NCBI GenBank assembly: GCA_963817895.1 | Contig: CAWFQB010000010.1 | Span: forward strand, 96,001 to 160,000 | Direction of reading: 5' to 3' | Length of the DNA stretch: 64,000 nt | Source: an uncultured Chthonomonadaceae bacterium | Lineage (GTDB): Bacteria > Armatimonadota > Chthonomonadetes > Chthonomonadales > Chthonomonadaceae | Part shown: one piece after another, positions 4,186 through 19,992 of the stretch | Numbering within the stretch: the first letter of the stretch is position 1 | How the letters are laid out: each line of letters begins with the position of its first letter | The notes under the pieces: generated by a model | The model's database searches: none | Seen by the model: only the letters and a program-made list of their open reading frames with translations | Told to the model about the DNA's origin: nothing | Position numbers and translations under genes: made by a program

Positions 4186-6493
4186 ATGCCAAAAGAGATT
4201 GTTGTCAATGTGGGCGAACGCGAAACGCGCATCGCCGTGATTGAAGACGGCAAACTGGTAGAACTGCACATCGAACGCGCCGAGCGCGTGGTCGGCAGTC
4301 TGTACAAGTGCCGGGTTTCCAATGTAATACAGGGTATGGATGCCGCGTTTGTAGATATTGGGCTGGATCGCAACGCTTTTCTTGCCGTTGGCGACGTGCT
4401 GCCCTCCCCGGATATGGGCGGCGCAATGCCCGCCGCGGAACCCGCCAGACCGAATAACAGCCAACCGGCGAAATCCGACGCGAATCCCGCCAACGGGCGT
4501 GGCCGTCAGGATCGGCGCTATGGCAAAGACGCGCGCCCGGAACGCGACCGCAAAGAAACCTCTCGCCCCTCCCCCGCTGTGGAAGTTCCCGTCCGGACGG
4601 TGACAACGAGGGCAGGGTGAAACGCTTTTTGTGGATGCCATGCAGGAGAGTGAAGCCGCGCGGGGTGTTTTGAATTCCGCGCTTTCCGCTGCCGATGGAG
4701 TGGGAACCGGCGATATATTTGCGGCCTCTGTACTCGAAAGCGGCAATGAAAACGACGCTGAATTCTTCGAGAACGCGCCCGTCGCGTCTGCTGACGATGG
4801 CGGTTCCAACTCTTTGAACGGCGTAATGGAACAGTCGCGCCAGAATGAGAATGTAAACCGTCTTGATGAGGAAGACAACGACCTCGAAGACGATGACGAC
4901 GATTTTGAAGACGACGATGACGAGGAGGATACGGACGAAGATGGCGAGGACGGAACCGCCGCTTCGGGAACGGACCCCGCCCGCCAGCATCGGCCCATGC
5001 GGGCCAAAGCCGGGTATCGCCGTTCCACCCTGCGTTCACAGCGCATCAGCGACGTGCTGAAAGTCGGGCAAGAGGTGTTGGTTCAGGTTATCAAAGGGCC
5101 GCGCAGCACCAAAGGGGCGCGCGTTTCCACCCGTATCTCCCTGCCGGGACGTTACCTTGTCCTGATGCCGGAAGCCGACAATCTGGGCGTTTCACGCAAA
5201 ATCGAGGAGAGCAAGGAGCGCGACCGCCTGAAAAAGATCGGCGACAAAATCCGCGTTCCCGGTTTCGGCCTGATTATTCGCACGGAAGCCGAAGACAAGA
5301 CCGAACTGGAACTGAAAGCCGACATGGACTTTCTCGTCCAGAACTGGCGGCAGGTGCAGGAAAACGCCCGAACGATGAGCGCGCCCGCCCTTGTGCTGCA
5401 AGATTTGACGCTGCTGTACAAGACCATTCGCGACGTATTCGGTTCCGATGTCAGCAAACTGGTGATTGATGAGCCTGCCGAGTACGAAAAAGCGAACGAC
5501 CTGCTGGATCGCATTTCGCCCAAACTAAAAGGCCGGGTTCACCTGTATGATGGCGCGAAGCCGATTTTCGACGAGTACAATCTGGAAACCGAGATTGAGC
5601 GGCTGACCCGGCGCAAGGTATTCCTGCGTTCGGGCGGTTCACTCGTGATTGAAGAGACTGAAGCGCTGACCGTGATTGACGTGAACACGAGCAAGAACGT
5701 GGGCGGCTACAATCTGGCCGAAACCATTCTCAAAACCAATGTAGACGCGGCAACGGAGATCGCGCGGCAACTGCGGTTGCGCGACATCGGCGGCATCATC
5801 GTGATTGACTTCATTGACATGAACAATCCCCGCGATAAGCAGGCGGTCATCAAGTCGCTGGAAACCGCGCTGAAAAAAGATCGTTCGCGCACGAAAATTT
5901 CCAGTATCAGCGGGCTGGGCCTGATTGAAATGACGCGCAAGCGCACGGGCGAAACCCTGTCCGGTTCCACAATGGATGAGTGTCCGTACTGCAAGGGGCT
6001 GGGGCATCTGCCCTCTCCCGAAAGCGTTTCGCTGCTCGTGGAACGCGACCTGCGCCGTCAGGTGAATGTGCAGCAGAACGCCAAAAAAGACGCTTTTCTG
6101 CTGCGCTGTCATCCGGAAGTGGCGGAACTCATCATCGGGCCGGAGGGCGCGACAGTGGAGGAGATGGAGCGGCAAATGGAGCGGGCGTTATTCGTCCGCG
6201 CCGACGAGGACGCGCACATCGAAGCGTTCACGATCACGCCGGGTGAAATCGGCGACTTCGAGAAGAACAAACTCAATTACCGCCGCGCCCAGATCGTGGA
6301 GTGCCGCATCATGCGTTCCCTGCTCAAAGAGGGCAACAAGTGCGTGGGCTGGTCGGAGGGTTACATGCTTGATCTGGACGACGGCAGCCGCTTTGTCGGC
6401 CAGAAAGCCAAAGTGCGGATTACGGACATACGCCGCTCGTATGCGGCAGGAACCCTGATACCCGGCTCGAACAAACCGCTGGACGAAGGATGA
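4186..6493 (+). CDS. rng: RNase E/G family ribonuclease with an acidic insertion in the S1 domain and a C-terminal TRAM-like domain (frameshift near 4600-4630)
   Basis: MPKEIVVN..ETRIAVIEDG, AAFVDIG, KGARVSTRISLPGRYLV, IDVNT, IARQLRLRDIGGIIVIDFIDM, CPYC.G.G; ORFs 4186..4620 and 4631..6493. Confidence 0.93.
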
Positions 6494-6616
6494 TTGCAAA
6501 GGATGAAGGATGAAGGATGAAGGATGAAATCACTGCCGCTTCCTCCTGAACCTCATCTGGAGAACAGGACATAAGGAAAGGATTTGTCTTCATCCTTCAT
6601 CCTTCATCCTTTGCAA
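6494..6616. repeat. inverted heptamer array (GGATGAA)n / (TTCATCC)n
   Basis: TTGCAAA(GGATGAA)4 ... (TTCATCC)3TTTGCAA. Confidence 0.85.
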
Positions 6617-6663: not shown

Positions 6664-6731
6664 ACTGGCTTTGAAGAGTAGGCTGTACAAATATCAGACT
6701 TGAACTACTCAGGTATATGAAGGAGAAGCGT

Positions 6732-7560
6732 ATGCCCGGCCCTTTCCCCGGAATGGACCCCTATCTGGAAGCGCCCTCACAATGGCAGGGCATTCACAAC
6801 ACCCTCACCGTAGATATGGCCTATGCGCTCAACGCTCTGATGCCGCGGGGGTATGCCGCTCGTGTGGAAGATCGCTGCCGTGTGGTGCAAACGCAACGCG
6901 GCATTACCCCGGATGTTGTGGTTCATCAAAAACAGACTCTGCTTCCAACGCCTTTCGGCTGTCGGGAATATTGCCGTCGCGCAACCGCCAATCTCTGCCG
7001 ACGTAGCGGCAGTAGTAGATGCGCCTGTTATCATCGAGTCCATTCCTGTTGAGCCACACGACACATACATTGACATCATCTCCACGACACATGGAGGGCG
7101 TATTGTCACCACGATTGAACTGCTCAGTCCTATCAACAAAGCGCCGGGAGAGGGGCAGAACCTGTACCTTACCAAGCAGCGAGAAATCATGCGCAGTCAA
7201 ACGCATTTGCTGGAAATAGATTTGCTGCGAGCGGATTCTTCAACGGTAGTGAGCGGGCGTCCTGCGCTTCCCGACATGCCGCGCTATGATTATATTATCT
7301 GTTTGCATCGCGGCGGGCAGGGAGAACGTTTTGAAATTTGGCCGACCTCAATTCGCCAGCGACTGCCGCGTATCTTTGTCCCTTTGATGGATTCAGACCC
7401 TGACGTTGTTCTGGATTTGCAGGCGGTCTTAAACCATTTCTATGACTTCGCGCGTCTTGCCGATCAGATTAACTATGCGCTGCCCCCGGAGGCAACGCTT
7501 AGAGATGAAGACGCGATATGGGCGGATGTGCTGCTGCGTGAGAAAGGCTTGCGTTCTTGA
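6732..7560 (+). CDS. DUF4058 family protein, copy 1 (frameshift near 6950)
   Basis: MPGPFPGMDPYLE..W..H start with AGGAG; IELLSPINK, HLLEIDLLR and LP.I.VPL...DPDVVLDLQ motifs. Confidence 0.85.
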
Positions 7561-7666
7561 TGTCGAGGTGAGCAGAAAATACGCTCCATTAACCTACGGG
7601 TAAAAGAACGGACGCAGTAATTTGCAGGGAAGCGGCTTCCGCGCCGCGATTCAGGAGTAACCCCAC

Positions 7667-10600
7667 TTGACAGCATCTTCATTCAGCGCAGAAATCCCAA
7701 CTGTTCAGAACGCCGGCGCGTTTGCGCTTCACATCACGGAAGTGACGGTGGAGGGAGGCCCGGAAAAAGGTTATGAGTATCGCGGCCTGCTCCGCTCCCT
7801 GGACGAAACCGGCAAGGTTCGGCTGAAGCAGGAATTACAAGCGCGGCGCAAACCGGAATGGCTGGTAAACGCGCGGCATCGGGGAAACGGCGAACTGCAG
7901 TTCAGCCTGTTGTGCCGCCGCTACGATACGCGCGCCTGGCAGGAGGTCGGGCAGGCCACATTGCGCCCACAGGAGCATCTCAACGACGAGAGCAGCGTTC
8001 TGGCGGAAACCGCAATCACCGGCTGGAAGGAAGCGCCGGAGTGCCGACTGCGCATACGGCTGTCGCAGTCCGAAGAAGCGCGCGAACGGAGCGCGCCCCC
8101 CGCCGGTATCAGCAAGGTTTCGCGCGCCATAGTGGCGCGCGAAACCGCTCCGGTCGCTGAGGAACTGGCGCTGTCGGCAGCGGAACTGGAAGCCGTTCCG
8201 CCCCTGAAGTCCCCCGAAATCGTGATCGTCAAAGACATCTGGAACAAACTGCTGGCCTTTCAGGATTTGCTGATCGAGATGTTTTTTGAGCGCCTGCTGC
8301 ACGAAGCCCCGGAACTAATCGAATCTTTCGGGGATGCCATAGACAACGCGCCGCGCTACTTTGCCGAAATGTTCGACGTTGTCGTTCGCGGCCTGAACCC
8401 GCATACGGAGCGCTGTTTGCGGGAGGGCTATCGCGGCGTGTATCCCGCGCCGCTCGATGGCTACAAAACAGTGGAAGAATACGCGCGAATTCTGGCGGAT
8501 CTGGGCATGAGGCCCAAACACTGGATGATTGCCCGACGCATCTGGGCGTGGGCGCTGCCGCACATTCCCTATCTGGAAGAGTATGACCGCGAAATCCTTT
8601 CCAAAGGCGTCCATTCGGCCCCGTACCGCTTTTTCAACAGGCACATTTTGCCGCCCGCGCTGAACGCGATCCGTCAGTTCGATGCCGCGTTGCCGCCGGA
8701 AATGGTTCGCGAAATGGTTCGCGAAGCGGAATTTCTGCTGAAAGATGCCCGCTCGGTCGGCATGGAATTCTACCGAACCCTGTTTGAAATGCACCCTGAT
8801 GTGCTTCCTTACTTCGGGCGCTCAGACATGGACGCGCTTTCCGAACACCTGATACAGGCGATCACATTTCTGGCGCGTTCGCTCGAAGCCGGACAGAGCG
8901 CGATGCAGGAGACGCTCAATCTGGCGCGCGTTCATGCCCATGTCGGCGTGCCGCCGGAAGCGTACCCGAAAATCGTCGCGCCGCTTTTCAAAGTGATGCG
9001 CAGGCGCCTGCCCGATTTTACGCCCGAATTGGAACACGCCTGGGAAACCTTTCTCAATCGCGTTATCAACACGCTGATTTAGCCGATGCTCAACCAGGCG
9101 CGCCTGCTGGCGCAGGCGCGCGAGTTTCTGGAGTTGGTTGCCCGCGAACAGGAGCTGGGAGGCTGCCGATTACGAGCGGCGATGGCTTGAAATCGAGCGA
9201 GAGGTTCACGCCACCGGGTCATACACGCACACCTATGAAGAATTGGCCTATGGCGCGCAGGTAGCGTGGCGCAACGCGGCCAAGTGTATCGCGCGTATCG
9301 CCTGGCGCAACATGATCGTGCGCGACCTGCGCCATGTGACCGACCCCGACGCGATGTTCCGCGAGTGCGTCGAACATGTCCGCATGGGGACGAACGGCGG
9401 CAACCTGCAAATCGTCATGAACGTGTTTCGCGCCAAAAAACCGGGCGAGCGGTGGGGGCCGCGCATCTGGAACTCGCAATATCTGCGCTTCGCCGCGTAT
9501 GAACAGCCAGACGGAACGATAGTAGGCGACCCGGCCAACCTGGGACTGACCAGAGCTTTGCTGCGGCAGGGCTGGACGCCGCCCGAAACCCGAACCGCCT
9601 TCGACGTGCTACCGCTCGCCATCGAAACGCCCGGACACGCGCCGAAATTGTATGAGTTCCCCGAAGAAGTGGTACGCAAAGTGTCGCTGGAACATCCGAC
9701 CATTCCGCAGTTCGCCGAGTTGAACTTGAAATGGTGTACCATCCCCGCAATTTCCAACTTCCGCATGGAAATCGGCGGTATCAACTATGGCTGCGTCCCC
9801 TTCAACGGCTGGTTTATGGGTACGGAAATTGCCCGCAACCTGTGGGAACCGGAACGCTACGACCAGGCCGAAACCATTGCCCGCGCGCTTGGTTTGGACA
9901 CGTCGAGCGAACAAACGCTGTGGCGCGACCGCGCTTTTCTGGAACTCAATGTCGCGGTTCTGCACTCGTTCGCCAAAGCCAAAATTTCGCTTGTGGATCA
10001 TCAAACGGCGTCCCGCCAATTTCTCAGTCACGATTTGCGCGAAAAAAAGGCGGGGCGCGAATGTCCCGCGCAGTGGTCGTGGGTCGTACCCCCGGCGGGC
10101 GGCAGTTCCACAGCGGTATGGCATCACGAAATGCGCGATTTCTACCTCAGCCCGCACTACCACTACGCGGCGGACAAGTGGGCCGTCGTTGACTCTGAAT
10201 TGGGTCTGGAAGAAGAGAATGAGAGTGGCGTGGAGGAGGCAAGCGCAAACCGCATCGTGATTTTGTACGGCTCGGAAACGGGAACGGCGGAGGGTTTCGC
10301 GCGCCAGGCCGCGCGCCGTCTGGCGCGTTTTCACCCTCGCGTTCTTGCCCTCGATGAGATTGCCGGCGAAGACCTGCGCCGCGAACAACTCGCGCTCATT
10401 ATCGCGTCTACCTTTGCTGACGGTGAAATGCCGGGTAACGCCAAAAAATTCCATACGTGGATTCAGGAGCAGCCGGGTGGGTCGCTGGACGGACTGAATT
10501 TCTCCGTAATGGCGCTGGGCAGCACGGTTTACCCGCGCTTTTGCGCGGCGGGCGTGGAACTGGATCGGCAGTTGGCGCGCGCGGGCGCAAGCCGCGCGCT

Positions 10601-12197
10601 CGCCCTGTGCCGGGGCGACGAAATCAGGGGACAGGTGGAAACGTTCCGGCAATGGCTGGACATGGTGGCGCGTATTCTGGGCGAAGACCCGACGAGCGGG
10701 CAGGGCAATGAGAACGACATTCAATTAAGTGTGTCATTTGTGGACATGGAACAAACGGGCGAGGTTCCCGCCATCCGCCGACTACAGGGAACTTTGGTTC
10801 CTGTTATCGCGAATCGCGAACTGCTCAAAGAGGTTGTGCTGGACAGCCGTTCCACGCGGTTTGTCGCCTTTGATATTTCCGGCACGGGCATGACGTATGA
10901 AACCGGCGACCACGTTGCCATTTATCCGCACAACCCGCGTCCGCTTGTGGAACGATTGTGCGCCCGCCTGCAAATTGATCCCGACGCCTGGTTTGTCACC
11001 TCGCTGACGGACAGCAGGGGCGCGTCTGTGGAAGGCGACACGCCCTATTCCCAGCCCACGCGCGTCCGGCAGGCATTGACGGAAGATTTCGACCTGTCCC
11101 TGCGCGAACCCTTTGAGGAAATGTTCGCCCTTCTGCTGCAAACCACGCAAAACGACCGGGACAATGCCGCCCTGAAAGCCTGGAGCGATACCCTGCGTTT
11201 GGGCGAACAGAACGAAGCCTGCCGCGACCTGAAAAAGCATATCAGCGCGAATTTTATCACGCTGGCCGATTTGCTGGAAGCGTTTCCCTCCGCCGCGCCC
11301 CGTCTGGAACAACTGCTCGAACTGCTGCCCAAACAGAAGCCGCGCCTGTATTCCATTTCGTCGTGTTCGCTGCTGCATCCGCGGCAGATTCATGTCACCG
11401 TTGGCGTGGTGCAGGTAACGACGGAGGCGGGCCGAACGCGACAGGGGTTGTGTTCCAATTACCTTGCCGGACTGGACCCGGAGCAGGGCGCGACCGCCCG
11501 CATCGCCGTTCTCGCGTCCAATTTCCGCCCGCCGCAGGATGTGAGCGCGCCCATTCTGCTGGTCGGGCCGGGAACGGGGCTGTCACCCCTGATCGGCTTT
11601 TTGCAGCACCGCGAACTGCAGATTCAGCAGACACACAGGGCGCGGGCAGGCAATGGGCGCGACAGCGCGATCCCTGGAAACGGGTCGAGCGGAAACGCGG
11701 GAACCGATGAGGCGCGCGAGGAACCGGGCATTATCATCGGCCATTCCCGCCTGTATTTCGGCTGCCGCAACCACAGCGACTATTTGTATCAGCAGGAGTT
11801 GGAAGCCTGGCGGGATGGGGGCGTCCTGACCCATCTTGGCGTCGCCTTTTCGCGGTTGGGCGAACAGAAGATGTACGTGCAGCATCTCATCGGGCAGCAC
11901 GCCAAAGATGTCTGGCAAGTCCTGTCGCAGCCCAACTGCCACTACTATGTTTGCGGCGATGCCAAAATGGCGGATGATGTATTCGAGGCGCTGATGACTA
12001 TTGCCGGAACACAGGGCGGATTGTCCCATGCTGAAGCGGTTGAGTTCTTTCAGCAGATGCAGGCGGAAAACCGCTATGTGATGGACGTATGGGGGGTGCT
12101 GCTGAACTTCCCCAAAGCCCTCGCCGATGTGCAGGAGTCCCGGTATACGCAGGGCGAACGCTGGCTCAAGCGCGTGTCCGCAAACGCAGTCGCTTGA
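7667..12197 (+). CDS. nos: multidomain nitric oxide synthase: N-terminal beta domain + pseudoglobin + globin + NOS oxygenase + flavodoxin + FAD/NADPH reductase (in-frame TAG at 9080-9082, frameshift near 9148)
   Basis: Heme-thiolate AWRNAAKCIARIAW; RIWNSQ; PFNGWFMGTEIARN; LVDHQTAS..F; WSWVVPP; FMN motifs LYGSETGTAE, STFADGE and LGSTVYPRFC; PRLYSISS; GPGTGLSP; YFGCR; YVCGD; DVWG; globin motif FYRTLF..HP....F...LARVHAHVGVPPEAY; AGGAG before the TTG start. Confidence 0.93.
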
Positions 12198-12249
12198 GCC
12201 GACTTGCGCATTTTGGCGACCTACGTTAGAATGGCTACAGGAGCAAGTT

Positions 12250-13065
12250 ATGCCTAATCCTTTTCCCGGAATGAACCCTTACCTGGAAACGCCCATGCGC
12301 TGGTCGAATATGCACGGGCGCTTGATTGCCGTTTTGATGGATGAACTGGATACGAAACTGCCGCCCGGATACAGCGTGAATATTGAAGAGCACTGTAGAG
12401 TAGCGCAAACGGAACGCGGCATCTACCCGGATTTGTACGTGAAACGCGATTTGCCCGAAATGCCTGCAACCGGCGGGGTGGCGGTCGCGTTGCCGCCGTA
12501 CCTTGCGACAAGCGAGGTTGCGGATAAGTCCTATATTGTCGCGCTCACGCCCGAAGCATCGCGCGAAACCTATATCAACATTGTGGACGTTGAAAACGGC
12601 AGTCGGGTCGTCGCCAGCATTGAGATACTGAGTACAATCAACAAGACTCCCGGCGCAGGACAAAATTTATACCTGACCAAGCAGCAGGAGGTGTTGAACA
12701 GTTCCACGCATCTCATTGAAATTGATCTATTACGGGCGGGAGCGGTAACGGTCGCTTGCGGACGTCCGGTTGTGCCGGAATCAGGCTATTACGATTACAT
12801 CGTTTGCCTGCATCGCGGCGGGGAAGGCGAACAATTTGAAATCTGGCCCTGTTCTGTTCGGCAGCGCCTGCCCCGCATTGCCGTGCCGCTGGCGGGTAAC
12901 GATCAGAATGTAACGCTGGATATACAGGCCGCCATAGACCGCTGCTACGAGCGCGGACGCTTCGCGCAGAAAATTGATTATACGCAGCCACCTAACCCAC
13001 CGCTTACAGAAGAAGATGCGCAATGGGCAGACGCCCTATTACGCGAGAAGGGATTACGCTCGTGA
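12250..13065 (+). CDS. DUF4058 family protein, copy 2
   Basis: MPNPFPGMNPYLE..W..H, IEILSTINK, HLIEIDLLR; ends REKGLRS like copy 1; AGGAG upstream. Confidence 0.88.
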   Translation: MPNPFPGMNPYLETPMRWSNMHGRLIAVLMDELDTKLPPGYSVNIEEHCRVAQTERGIYPDLYVKRDLPEMPATGGVAVALPPYLATSEVADKSYIVALTPEASRETYINIVDVENGSRVVASIEILSTINKTPGAGQNLYLTKQQEVLNSSTHLIEIDLLRAGAVTVACGRPVVPESGYYDYIVCLHRGGEGEQFEIWPCSVRQRLPRIAVPLAGNDQNVTLDIQAAIDRCYERGRFAQKIDYTQPPNPPLTEEDAQWADALLREKGLRS

Positions 13066-17321: not shown

Positions 17322-19992
17322 TTGACTGGCAAGCAGAATCGCTGGATGCTTCTGTTCATCCTCGCCCTGACCGCGCTCGCGGCGACAATCACATTCCGTA
17401 ATAGCCTGCCTGGATTTGGCGCTATTCCCTTTCGCACCGGTTTGGACATTCAGGGCGGCGCGCGAGTCGTGCTGCGCGCTAAAACCGAGGCCTTCAAGGG
17501 CAAATGGAACCCGGATTCCAATTTGGAAGCCGTGCGTAAGGTGCTGGAAAACCGCGTCAACGCGACGGGTGTCGCGGAACCGCAGATCATTACCAAAAAG
17601 CCCGACCAGATCATCATCGAGCTTCCCGGCCTGAAAAACGAGGGGGATGTTCGCAGCGTCCCTGCAATCTACGGCCAGCCTGCAATTCTATCTGTTGCCG
17701 CAACTTGGCGACAAAGACGGGCGTTTGCCCGCCAAATGGCGCGTTGCCCAGGTCAAAAACCCGAAAACCGGCGTGGAAGAAGAGACGCTTGTTTTCGCGC
17801 AAAACAACCTGCCGGTTCCTATCGAGATTTTGCGGGAAGAGGTTTTTAACCAGAATCCGATAGCCGCCGGGGGCGATCTTGCCGCCAGCAGCGCACAGCC
17901 TAACCCCACAACCGGCGAGGCCATCATTAACTTTGAACTCAAGGGTGAGGGTAAAGACCGGTTTCAGGAGGTGACGCGCAGCAACATCGGCAAGCATCTC
18001 GCCATTTTTCTGGATCAAAAATTGCTGACCGCCCCGGTCATCAACAGCATGATTCCGGGCAAGGGCGAAATTGAAGGCAGTTTCACGCTCGAATCCGCCA
18101 AAGCGCTTTCCGACCAACTGAACGCGGGCGCACTCCCCGTGCCGCTTGAAGAGGTGGAAGTCCGCAAACTGGAAGCCACGCTTGGGCAGGAAGCGGTTCA
18201 CACCACGTTTACCGCCGGTATTGTCGGGCTGGCCCTCGTTCTTGTCTTTATGCTGTTCTGGTATCGTCTGCCCGGTCTGCTCGCCAACTTCGCGCTCATT
18301 CTGTACGCGCTGTTTTCGCTTGCGCTGTTCAAAGTGTGGCCGATTACGCTCACGCTGCCGGGTATCGCCGGATTTATTCTGTCCATTGGAATGGCGGTTG
18401 ACGCCAATATCTTGATTTTCGAGCGGTTCAAGGAAGAGTTGCGCAGCGGCAAAAACCTGCGTTCCGCCATTGACGCCGGGTTCAAGCGCGCGTTCACGGC
18501 CATTTTCGACAGCAACGTGTGTACCATCGTGACGTGCGGAATTCTGTATGAATTTGGAACCGGGCCGATACGCGGCTTTGCCCTGACGTTGGGGTTGGGC
18601 GTCGTGGTCAGCATGTTTACCGCCATCGCGGTCACGCGCACGTTCCTGTTCGCGCTCGTGAATACAAATCTTGGCGCGAACCCCGGCGTGTTCGGTGTGG
18701 CGGACGAGGCGCATATCCGGCAGTGGAACGTGATGAAGCACAAATGGCGCTGGCTCGGCATTTCGCTGGCGATCATCATTCCCGGTCTTATCGCGTGGGG
18801 AATGGGCGGCATCAAGCAGAGCATTGACTTCACGGGCGGCACGGAACAGCAGATCGCGTTCGCGTCCCGGCACTCCCCCGATGAGATCAGCAAAGTCGTT
18901 AGTTCGCTGGGCAGCAAGTTCAAGGACAACCACGTTGTCATTTCGGAAGACCCCAAGCAGTTATTCCCGCATCAGGCGACAGTGACGACCGAACGATTGG
19001 AAGAGCCGGATCGCCTGAACCTGCTCAATACATTAGTACGGCAAGTCGGGCCGCTGGACAAAGTAAACGGCAAACCGCTTGCCGTAACCGACGTGCCGTT
19101 TTCCAATGTCAGCGGAACCATCAGCAAGGAACTGACCGTCAACGCTATCGAGGCCGTGATACTCGCGTCCGTGTTCATCGTCCTGTACCTCGCCCTGCGC
19201 TTCTCCATCGGCGGGTTCAAGGAGGGTTTGAAGTACGGAAGTTGCGCGGTTATCGCGCTGTTGCACGACGTTCTTGTCCTGTGGGGATCGTTCGCCATCA
19301 TGGGCAAGCTGTTTGGCTGGCAGATTGACAGCCTGTTCGTGACGGCGATGCTGACGGTCATTGGATTTTCCGTGCATGACACCATCATCGTATTCGACCG
19401 GGTACGCGAAAACCTGCACCATCGGGGAGTGGGCGAATCGTTCTCCGACCTGACCGACCGCAGCATTGACCAGACCATTGGGCGCAGCATCAAAACGTCG
19501 TGGACGGTTGTAATGACCCTGCTGGCCCTGTTCCTGTTCGGCGGCGTAGTAATTCACCAGTTCGCGGGCGCCCTCCTTATTGGCATCGTCAGCGGAACGT
19601 ATTCGTCCATCTTCAACGCAAGCGTCCTGCTGGTCATGGCGAAAAGCAAAGACATTGCGCCCATCGTGGCCGGCCCGTCTTCGGGAACGCCCAACCGCCG
19701 CGCGCCTGAAACCCTTCAGGAACGGGCGCGACGAGGCGCGCTGGAAGAGCGCAACATCACTCCCGTTGGCGCAATTCCCGCCCCCACGCCCGCCACGCGC
19801 CCGCAAATCGCCGCGCCCACTAATGGTGGCGCAACGGCCTACACCAACAATGAAAGCGTGTCGCAGGCCGAAGACGACGACGTGGAAGAAACAGAAGCAG
19901 GGGAAGTCCGTGGAACCACACGCCGCGCCTCTGAACCTCGTCCGACGCCTGCAACAGTACGCAAGCAGCCGACGCGAAGACGCAGGATGTAG
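17322..19992 (+). CDS. secDF: fused protein translocase subunit SecDF (frameshift near 17660)
   Basis: GLDIQGG; ENRVNATGVAEP; IIIELPG; LNAGALP; TLTLPGIAGFILSIGMAVDANILIFER; IDFTGG; GFSVHDTIIVFDRVRE; GTYSSIF; GGAGG before TTG. Confidence 0.95.

Follow-up and report, generated by a model that had tools for sequence, protein, structure and literature searches.

The closest described relative of the gene treated here is syNOS, the nitric oxide synthase (NOS) of Synechococcus sp. PCC 7335, a six-domain homodimer whose architecture (with a C2 domain, a pseudoglobin, no zinc site and a C-terminal tail) was published in 2026, and in which the heme-free pseudoglobin replaces the zinc site (PMC12922734). 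When Ca2+ is absent, the flavodoxin docking site is occluded by the C2 domain, and the globin can receive electrons from the FNR module, so that nitric oxide (NO) is turned into nitrate; upon addition of Ca2+ the C2 domain shifts by ~85 angstroms to the globin and NO synthesis is freed, and an enzyme deprived of its C2 domain displays no NOS activity in vitro (PMC12922734). Its output of NO and nitrate is ~1:3, and tetrahydrobiopterin (BH4) is required, tetrahydrofolate not being sufficient (PMC7554344). Here we describe a locus at positions 7667-12197 of the plus strand of a 64,000-nt stretch of DNA (‘the window’) from the assembly of a Chthonomonadaceae bacterium of the Armatimonadota (G000, 81% complete), which was confirmed to be a colinear orthologue of syNOS (PDB 9q05).

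The gene was compared with P0241, an intact relative of 1,509 amino acids (the second member of the 90% cluster of the window’s C-terminal frame); with two genomes of the same genus, G001 (97% complete) and G002; with 182 homologues, over which residue conservation was counted; and with the best 80 of 133 genome loci that carry a NOS (41 cyanobacterial and 39 non-cyanobacterial), which are related to one another and do not provide independent counts.

A syNOS-type enzyme in the Armatimonadota

The locus holds two long reading frames (7667-9082, 471 residues, and 9138-12197, 1019 residues). Pfam identifies a globin at residues 367-469 of the first, and NO_synthase, Flavodoxin_1, FAD_binding_1 and NAD_binding_1 domains in the second; the oxygenase scores 462 bits against PF02898 (cut-off 22.7), and the globin matches NF009805 weakly (E 9e-13). 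The best solved relative of both halves is syNOS (E 8e-94 over residues 11-469, and E 0), with the tail matched at E 2e-54, and the stretch that spans the stop codon, when read with X at that position, aligns without gaps to syNOS residues 410-494. The order of domains is C2, pseudoglobin, globin, oxygenase, flavodoxin, FNR and tail.

A preliminary interpretation made without database searches (the sequence-only reading) had proposed a syNOS-type enzyme with a beta-rich, possibly C2-like N-terminal domain of ~140 residues, one globin-like domain lacking and a second possessing the proximal His, a complete oxygenase, the flavin mononucleotide (FMN), flavin adenine dinucleotide (FAD) and NADPH domains with a tail after DVWG, and an acidic linker with neither a calmodulin-binding helix nor a zinc motif. 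Each of these elements was borne out, by Pfam and syNOS alignments and by the domain models and structure prediction that it had recommended. By sequence, syNOS is the only match of the N-terminal 138 residues (E 2e-4), which were modelled from a 25-row alignment as an eight-stranded sandwich (predicted local distance difference test score 90.4), for which the top four Foldseek matches are syNOS chains (TM scores of 0.77-0.79), followed by dysferlin, cPLA2 and other eukaryotic C2 domains. In the pseudoglobin, the position that the original motif comparison equated with the proximal His is Leu276, and corresponds to Phe in 129, Leu in 52, a gap in one and His in none of the 182 homologues; the true globin retains His423, CD1 Phe383 and B10 Tyr369.

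The heme Cys, substrate Glu and pterin-site Arg and Trp of the oxygenase are unchanged in all 182 homologues, and these residues together with the flavin motifs (97-100% conserved over that set) are all present in the window protein. Also retained are Trp715, Glu523, Glu568, Asn575, Trp1440 and Tyr1458 (syNOS numbering) as well as the flavin and NADPH motifs. An Ile occupies the Val/Ile switch position, at which mammalian-type NOS has Val. The oxygenase hook bears no zinc-binding CxxxxC (the sole such motif sits in the FNR domain), and the linker between the oxygenase and FMN domains is acidic, with no calmodulin-binding helix. Its two breaks and part of its C2 contacts (see below) aside, the predicted protein is a syNOS-type member by every feature that can be judged from sequence.

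We lean towards the view that the locus is one gene, intact in the organism and gained sideways, whose product would be a self-sufficient NOS, active as a homodimer in the manner of syNOS and serving NO homeostasis and nitrogen recovery. The domain order, the predicted C2 fold and the cofactor and catalytic residues belong to the observed part of this view. Since those residues are kept, the enzyme most likely functions as syNOS does, each catalytic step being carried over from that system, and a Ca2+/C2-switched conversion of arginine to NO and then to nitrate appears to be the best reading. By analogy, electrons from NADPH would pass through FAD and FMN to the oxygenase heme of the opposite subunit; the oxygenase would convert L-arginine to citrulline and NO with the aid of a tetrahydropterin; with electrons from the FNR module, the globin would turn NO into nitrate; and, in response to Ca2+, the C2 domain would leave the oxygenase/FNR interface for the globin, thereby exchanging NO removal for NO synthesis. 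The weakest step concerns the use of such an enzyme, which would likeliest be to maintain NO homeostasis and to recover the nitrogen of arginine in the form of nitrate, because no H-NOX gene was found in the genome and nitrate and nitrite reductase genes are present. Several observations weigh against this view, and bear in turn on the state of the gene (its TAG codon), on the arginine pocket and C2 contacts, and on the pterin, nitrate and H-NOX genes of the host; each is considered below with the alternative that it favors.

The two breaks: assembly error or pseudogene

All six domains and the tail are present, but the gene as assembled is not ‘full-length’, as the sequence-only reading had called it, being cut by a TAG codon (9080-9082) and by an extra base near 9155. 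P0241 is colinear, without gaps, to both halves (91.3% and 92.0% identity) and has Gln at the position of the stop, while a contig from run X2 that is ~92% alike over 7507-12246 lacks the extra base at 9155. A single intact polypeptide is encoded by P0241 and by at least 65 of the 80 related loci, most of the others being ended by contig ends.

To place these lesions against a background, open reading frames were drawn from 19 stretches (380 kb) of G001, and one frame was counted per place, as shadow reading frames otherwise inflate the number of stops (to 30). Among 166 comparable genes of the assembly, 30 (rne among them) are broken, by 37 frameshifts and one stop in 55,061 aligned codons, although some of these breaks could be genuine or could sit in G001. 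The expected background is ~1 frameshift per 1,500 codons. Within the window, genes encoding a MoxR-type protein (835-2025), rne (4186-6493), a DUF4058 protein (6717-7560) and secDF (17322-19992) all seem to be split across frames, in line with the indel rate of the assembly. We infer that the frameshift near 9155 is ordinary noise of the type seen in unpolished long-read assemblies. Because the relative P0241 is intact and 30 of 166 genes of the assembly are broken, assembly error is the likely cause, and the gene is quite probably intact in the organism.

The TAG is not routine noise and is less well explained than the frameshift: at one in-frame stop in 55,061 codons, the chance of finding one in a gene of such length is ~3%. 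No reads of the window strain bridge either break, and near-identical short contigs from run X1 (8797-9036 and 9263-9413) stop short of both lesions. The rarity of in-frame stops, the position of both lesions within 75 bases, the dispensability of NOS in the genus (none was found in the 97% complete G001) and the fact that the G002 copy is split too, elsewhere in the gene, would suit a recent, true pseudogene in the window strain, in which the TAG and perhaps the frameshift are real and at most a C2-pseudoglobin-globin fragment is left. This is nevertheless unlikely, given that the window lineage shows no surplus of changes: its differences from P0241 polarise evenly (36 vs 37 of 124, and 11 vs 11 at conserved columns), and the terminal branches are 0.022 for the window and 0.052 for P0241. 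In addition, that close relative is intact, a gene of similar size would be expected to contain about one frameshift at the rate seen in the assembly, and the neighboring rne and DUF4058 genes and an unlinked NasC-like gene are broken as well. Coordinates of the gene, its domains, its lesions and its flanking genes are collected in Table 1.

Table 1. The syNOS-type locus and its flanking genes, in window coordinates
Feature	Position	Strand	Basis
syNOS-type nitric oxide synthase gene, ~1,509 codons, two interruptions in assembly	7667..12197	+	syNOS alignments; gap-free to intact P0241, 91-92%
C2 domain, ~residues 11-136	7697..8074	+	syNOS alignment, predicted fold
Long linker L1, C2 to pseudoglobin	8075..8209	+	syNOS alignment; boundaries per PMC12922734
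Pseudoglobin without proximal His	8210..8692	+	syNOS alignment; syNOS 179-339 heme-free per PMC12922734
Globin, NO dioxygenase type; proximal His423 at 8933-8935, CD1 Phe383, B10 Tyr369	8693..9088	+	PF00042; syNOS Phe380/His422
In-frame TAG; Gln in intact P0241, CAG in G002	9080..9082	+	Comparison with relatives
Single extra base causing frameshift; not in 92%-alike run X2 contig nor in G002	9155..9155	+	Comparison
NOS oxygenase; heme Cys 9285-9287; Phe for Tyr716 at 9813-9815; Asn for Asp724	9089..10181	+	PF02898, syNOS alignment
Acidic oxygenase-flavodoxin linker, no calmodulin-binding helix	10182..10253	+	Sequence; syNOS also without calmodulin-binding helix
FMN-binding flavodoxin domain	10260..10655	+	PF00258
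FNR module (FAD- and NADPH-binding); ~34-residue low-complexity insertion near 11619-11720	10794..11981	+	PF00667, PF00175; split syNOS alignment
DVWG (Trp1440 equivalent) and C-terminal tail, aligned to syNOS through residue 1466	12084..12197	+	
Upstream DUF4058 gene, frameshifted in assembly	6717..7560	+	
Downstream DUF4058 paralogue	12250..13065	+	Pfam

Host, distribution and origin

The host is a member of the Chthonomonadaceae, a non-photosynthetic group. Among the best 120 relatives of the window’s RpsA, four rows are named, three as Chthonomonadaceae or Chthonomonadales and the fourth and weakest with a Chloroherpetonaceae label; the closest titled NOS locus (L008, 71%) also belongs to the Chthonomonadaceae, and neither reaction-centre nor RuBisCO genes were matched in the 81% complete G000. 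In an unrooted tree of 42 oxygenase-plus-flavodoxin rows, which shows no donor, the window and P0241 join with 100/100 support inside a set (99/98) that contains nine Bacteroidota rows, and the cyanobacteria and the alphaproteobacteria form separate sides (100/100 each); a 123-row oxygenase tree gives the same picture with weaker support. The nearest named branch consists of the Spirosoma/Cytophagales copies, at 61-67% identity. The phylogeny that the sequence-only reading had called for sets the protein apart from cyanobacteria; its suggestion of a non-cyanobacterial host is upheld, and no sign of a chimera was seen.

That the locus is cyanobacterial or chimeric is hardly credible, and no point in its favor was found. 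Besides the RpsA relatives and the position of the protein outside the cyanobacterial side of the tree, an orthologue is present in G002, of the same genus, and the G+C content of the NOS at third codon positions (0.70-0.72) equals that of rne, secDF and rpsA. The independent X2 contig runs continuously from the upstream DUF4058 gene through the NOS to the downstream DUF4058 gene and, because it spans both flanks, makes a chimera unlikely.

NOS is rare in the group: of 401 genomes taken from the phylum, two (G000 and G002) have one, and among 61 closer relatives a NOS was also found in G016, which has a different NOS type. The latter (L007:3546-6926) comprises two cNMP-binding domains, a BFD-like 2Fe-2S domain, FAD and NAD domains and a C-terminal oxygenase, an order that resembles Sorangium scNOS. 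In G001 the corresponding place reads rne, a single DUF4058 gene and an amine oxidase, without a NOS, while in the window the NOS sits between two DUF4058 paralogues and in G002 the orthologue has a different neighborhood. The window’s pair of DUF4058 copies match at only 65% over 466 bases, and so do not date a gain or loss of NOS between them. Neither insertion sequence ends nor long direct repeats were found at the flanks of the NOS gene, and a promoter and terminator scan stayed at chance level (4 vs 3.6, and 10 vs 9.0). The patchy presence of the gene and its grouping with the Spirosoma/Cytophagales copies suggest horizontal gain, probably not recent, in which one Chthonomonadaceae genus received the gene from the heterotroph branch to which Spirosoma belongs. 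Elsewhere in the window, a perfect 29-nt inverted repeat made of GGATGAA heptamers follows rne (6494-6616); arrays of at least three such units number 92 in the genome, many of them also in G002, and constitute an intergenic repeat family.

A non-cyanobacterial host for a syNOS-type NOS is not new, and a host in the Armatimonadota adds little alone. Spirosoma linguale was listed among NOS-bearing organisms in 2015 (PMC4648414) and was put in the cyanobacterial globin-NOS branch in 2018, in a sentence that can be taken to make either its host or its architecture the exception (PMC6104048); its protein (P0030) does have a globin. With the C2 domain, pseudoglobin, missing zinc site and tail already described (PMC12922734), Spirosoma already placed here, and 39 of the best 80 loci non-cyanobacterial, the surprise voiced in the sequence-only reading was overstated. 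We found no published report of NOS in Armatimonadota in a search of largely open-access literature; the supplement text of PMC12922734 (alignment figures apart) mentions neither Spirosoma, Armatimonad nor Amaricoccus.

An altered arginine pocket and C2 surface

Tyr716 of syNOS, named as an arginine-binding residue (PMC6104048), is Phe in the window protein and in all 39 non-cyanobacterial loci, whereas 40 of the 41 cyanobacterial loci have Tyr (the remaining one was unread). Asp724 is Asn in the window and in 32 of the 39 non-cyanobacterial loci. In neuronal NOS (nNOS), Tyr588 bonds the alpha-carboxylate of the substrate, and both substrate binding and oxidation change strongly when it is mutated (PMC6120233). 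These facts raise the alternative that the heterotroph branch has been retuned, such that Phe716 (mostly together with Asn724) loosens the grip on the alpha-carboxylate, and the enzymes either prefer or accept carboxylate-free arginine derivatives (agmatine, amides, esters or peptide-bound arginine), or are slow synthases that act mainly as NO dioxygenases. We consider this doubtful. In 79 of 80 loci the carboxylate site is still lined by a Gln and an Arg as well, whose roles are known from nNOS structures; endothelial NOS has Asn at the second site (the Asp724 equivalent) and still uses arginine; and the loci are related, so that the split between Phe and Tyr may be a single old substitution. 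No published report of a Phe pocket in syNOS-type NOS was found in largely open-access literature. If the Phe pocket did shift the substrate, the physiological input to such a NOS would be a new one.

Of the five basic contacts of the syNOS C2 domain, three are kept (Arg57, Lys37 as Arg, and Arg81), Arg57 being represented in the window by an invariant Arg60, and two are lost (Lys35 to Glu and Arg107 to Ser). The Glu/Ser state resembles that of most of 12 non-cyanobacterial C2 rows, while all 13 cyanobacterial rows hold Lys or Arg at position 35. Both sets of changes weigh against the preferred reading, of an arginine-using enzyme with a Ca2+-responsive C2 switch.

Some syNOS-type enzymes have no C2 domain (~1,320-1,385 residues where complete, with the 5' reading frame closed). 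They comprise all 19 alphaproteobacterial-type loci and some Spirosoma copies, the entries being L045, L046, L049, L050, L052, L058, L059, L065, L067, L068, L072, L074-L076, L078, L079, L082, L086 and L087, then L022 and L023, and P0002, P0036, P0040 and P0042. Loss of the C2 domain seems to have occurred on more than one occasion.

Neighboring genes and the use of the enzyme

An H-NOX gene is present in the flanks fetched around 27 of the 39 non-cyanobacterial NOS loci: in Bacteroidota at 10 of 18, in the alphaproteobacterial type at 17 of 19, and at none of two others. None of the 41 cyanobacterial loci has one there, several of the loci being shortened by contig ends. In the alphaproteobacterial type it lies head-to-head with the NOS (17/19; for example, L045:4237-4842 on the minus strand), and in Bacteroidota upstream on the same strand with recurring kinase and LytTR genes (10/18; for example, L022:1517-2068 on the plus strand). 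Such neighbors suggest a self-contained NOS-to-H-NOX signalling unit with a globin as damper; no published report of an H-NOX link for syNOS-type NOS was found in largely open-access literature.

Instead of recovering nitrogen, the window enzyme could serve mainly to signal through NO or to protect against stress, an alternative that draws on those flanks, on the LytTR regulators and PAS kinases that recur near heterotroph NOS genes, and on Silicibacter, where a NOS of another type has been shown to feed H-NOX signalling (PMC4436077). For this host it appears rather unlikely, with no H-NOX found in G000, G001 or G002 (an absence that the 81% completeness of G000 leaves unproven) and no sensor or kinase gene adjoining the NOS within the window.

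For the preferred use, in NO homeostasis and nitrogen recovery, the genome offers a NirB gene above cut-off, a NasC-like nitrate reductase gene spread over three frames and followed by a transporter that we take by eye to be NarK-like, and, for the pterin, FolE beside a two-domain PTPS-family gene, both above cut-off. All of these genes, of the kinds that the sequence-only reading had advised looking for, are unlinked to the NOS, and no terminal BH4-forming reductase was identified in the host genome, a point that matters in light of the BH4 requirement of syNOS. Neither pterin nor nitrate genes were among the recurring NOS neighbors (16 proteins scanned). Of 41 genomes of the family that were searched, 21, the NOS-less G001 among them, have a full-length NasC-like gene. 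Being unlinked and common in NOS-less kin, the NasC-like genes allow a role in nitrogen recovery but do not indicate it. The self-contained arginine-to-NO-to-nitrate system of the sequence-only reading stands as to the type of enzyme, with its role conjectural in view of these genes and of the Phe at position 716. Two further globin matches lie at G000:C1:1617789-1618097 and G000:C3:590298-590513 (frames of 162 and 197 residues), and none in G001.

Comparison with known systems

The locus extends syNOS-type enzymes to the Armatimonadota and shows them not to be a cyanobacterial speciality, with about half of the best loci in heterotrophs. Phe716 in all non-cyanobacterial copies read, the altered basic patch of the C2 domain and the C2-less copies are natural variants with which the syNOS mechanism of 2026 might be probed. 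Speculatively, and with little confidence, one might see in these copies (from Armatimonadota, Bacteroidota and Alphaproteobacteria) a widespread and unstudied heterotroph branch, in which the Tyr-to-Phe pocket serves another guanidino substrate or a retuned rate, the C2 switch has been rewired or dropped, and most members are wired to H-NOX signalling, the present lineage being sensor-free.

Other variations on the architecture were seen among the relatives. Some cyanobacterial copies (P0095, P0119, L026, L054, L062 and L069) place two EF-hands directly ahead of the oxygenase (residues 406-464 in P0095) and have only a half-matched globin, which may be read as a second route to Ca2+ control. 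Three cyanobacterial synthases (P0054, P0061 and P0071) carry at their C-terminus a beta-carbonic anhydrase domain of the LCIB type (residues 1482-1695 in P0054), and two proteins of ~580-600 residues (L081 and L083, the latter adjoining an H-NOX gene) consist of a pseudoglobin and oxygenase only.

Among described enzymes, syNOS itself (PDB 9Q05, 9Q06, 9Q0X, 9Q0Y and 9Q15) is the nearest, with its six domains, their linkers and the tail arranged as in the window protein, neither protein having a zinc site or calmodulin helix, and with window equivalents of its Cys539, Glu523, Glu568, Asn575, Trp715, His422, Phe380, Arg382, Trp1440, Tyr1458, Arg57 and Arg81. The window gene differs in the phylum of its host, its breaks in the assembly, the four pocket and C2 substitutions described above, two more in the tail (Asn1457 to Arg and Arg1460 to Gln) and the 34-residue insertion in its NADPH domain. 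The Spirosoma linguale NOS (WP_012930711.1) and other Spirosoma/Cytophagales copies, for which no biochemical study was found in the literature searched, share both the architecture and the Phe/Asn pocket, but unlike the window gene often lie beside H-NOX and two-component genes (10/18 loci).

Diatom globin-NOS proteins are eukaryotic enzymes of the cyanobacterial type, with or without a globin, and are likened here by description (PMC4648414). Sorangium scNOS and Silicibacter SiliNOS are also self-sufficient synthases of heterotrophic bacteria, but in a different order, with an N-terminal FAD/2Fe-2S reductase, a C-terminal oxygenase and neither an FMN domain nor a globin (PMC4436077). The features of mammalian-type NOS (calmodulin-binding helix, zinc site and Val switch) are absent from the window protein. 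Finally, flavohaemoglobin (Hmp) pairs a globin with an FNR module as an NO dioxygenase, whereas in the window protein the same two elements are fused into a NOS, with the FNR module at the far end of the chain.

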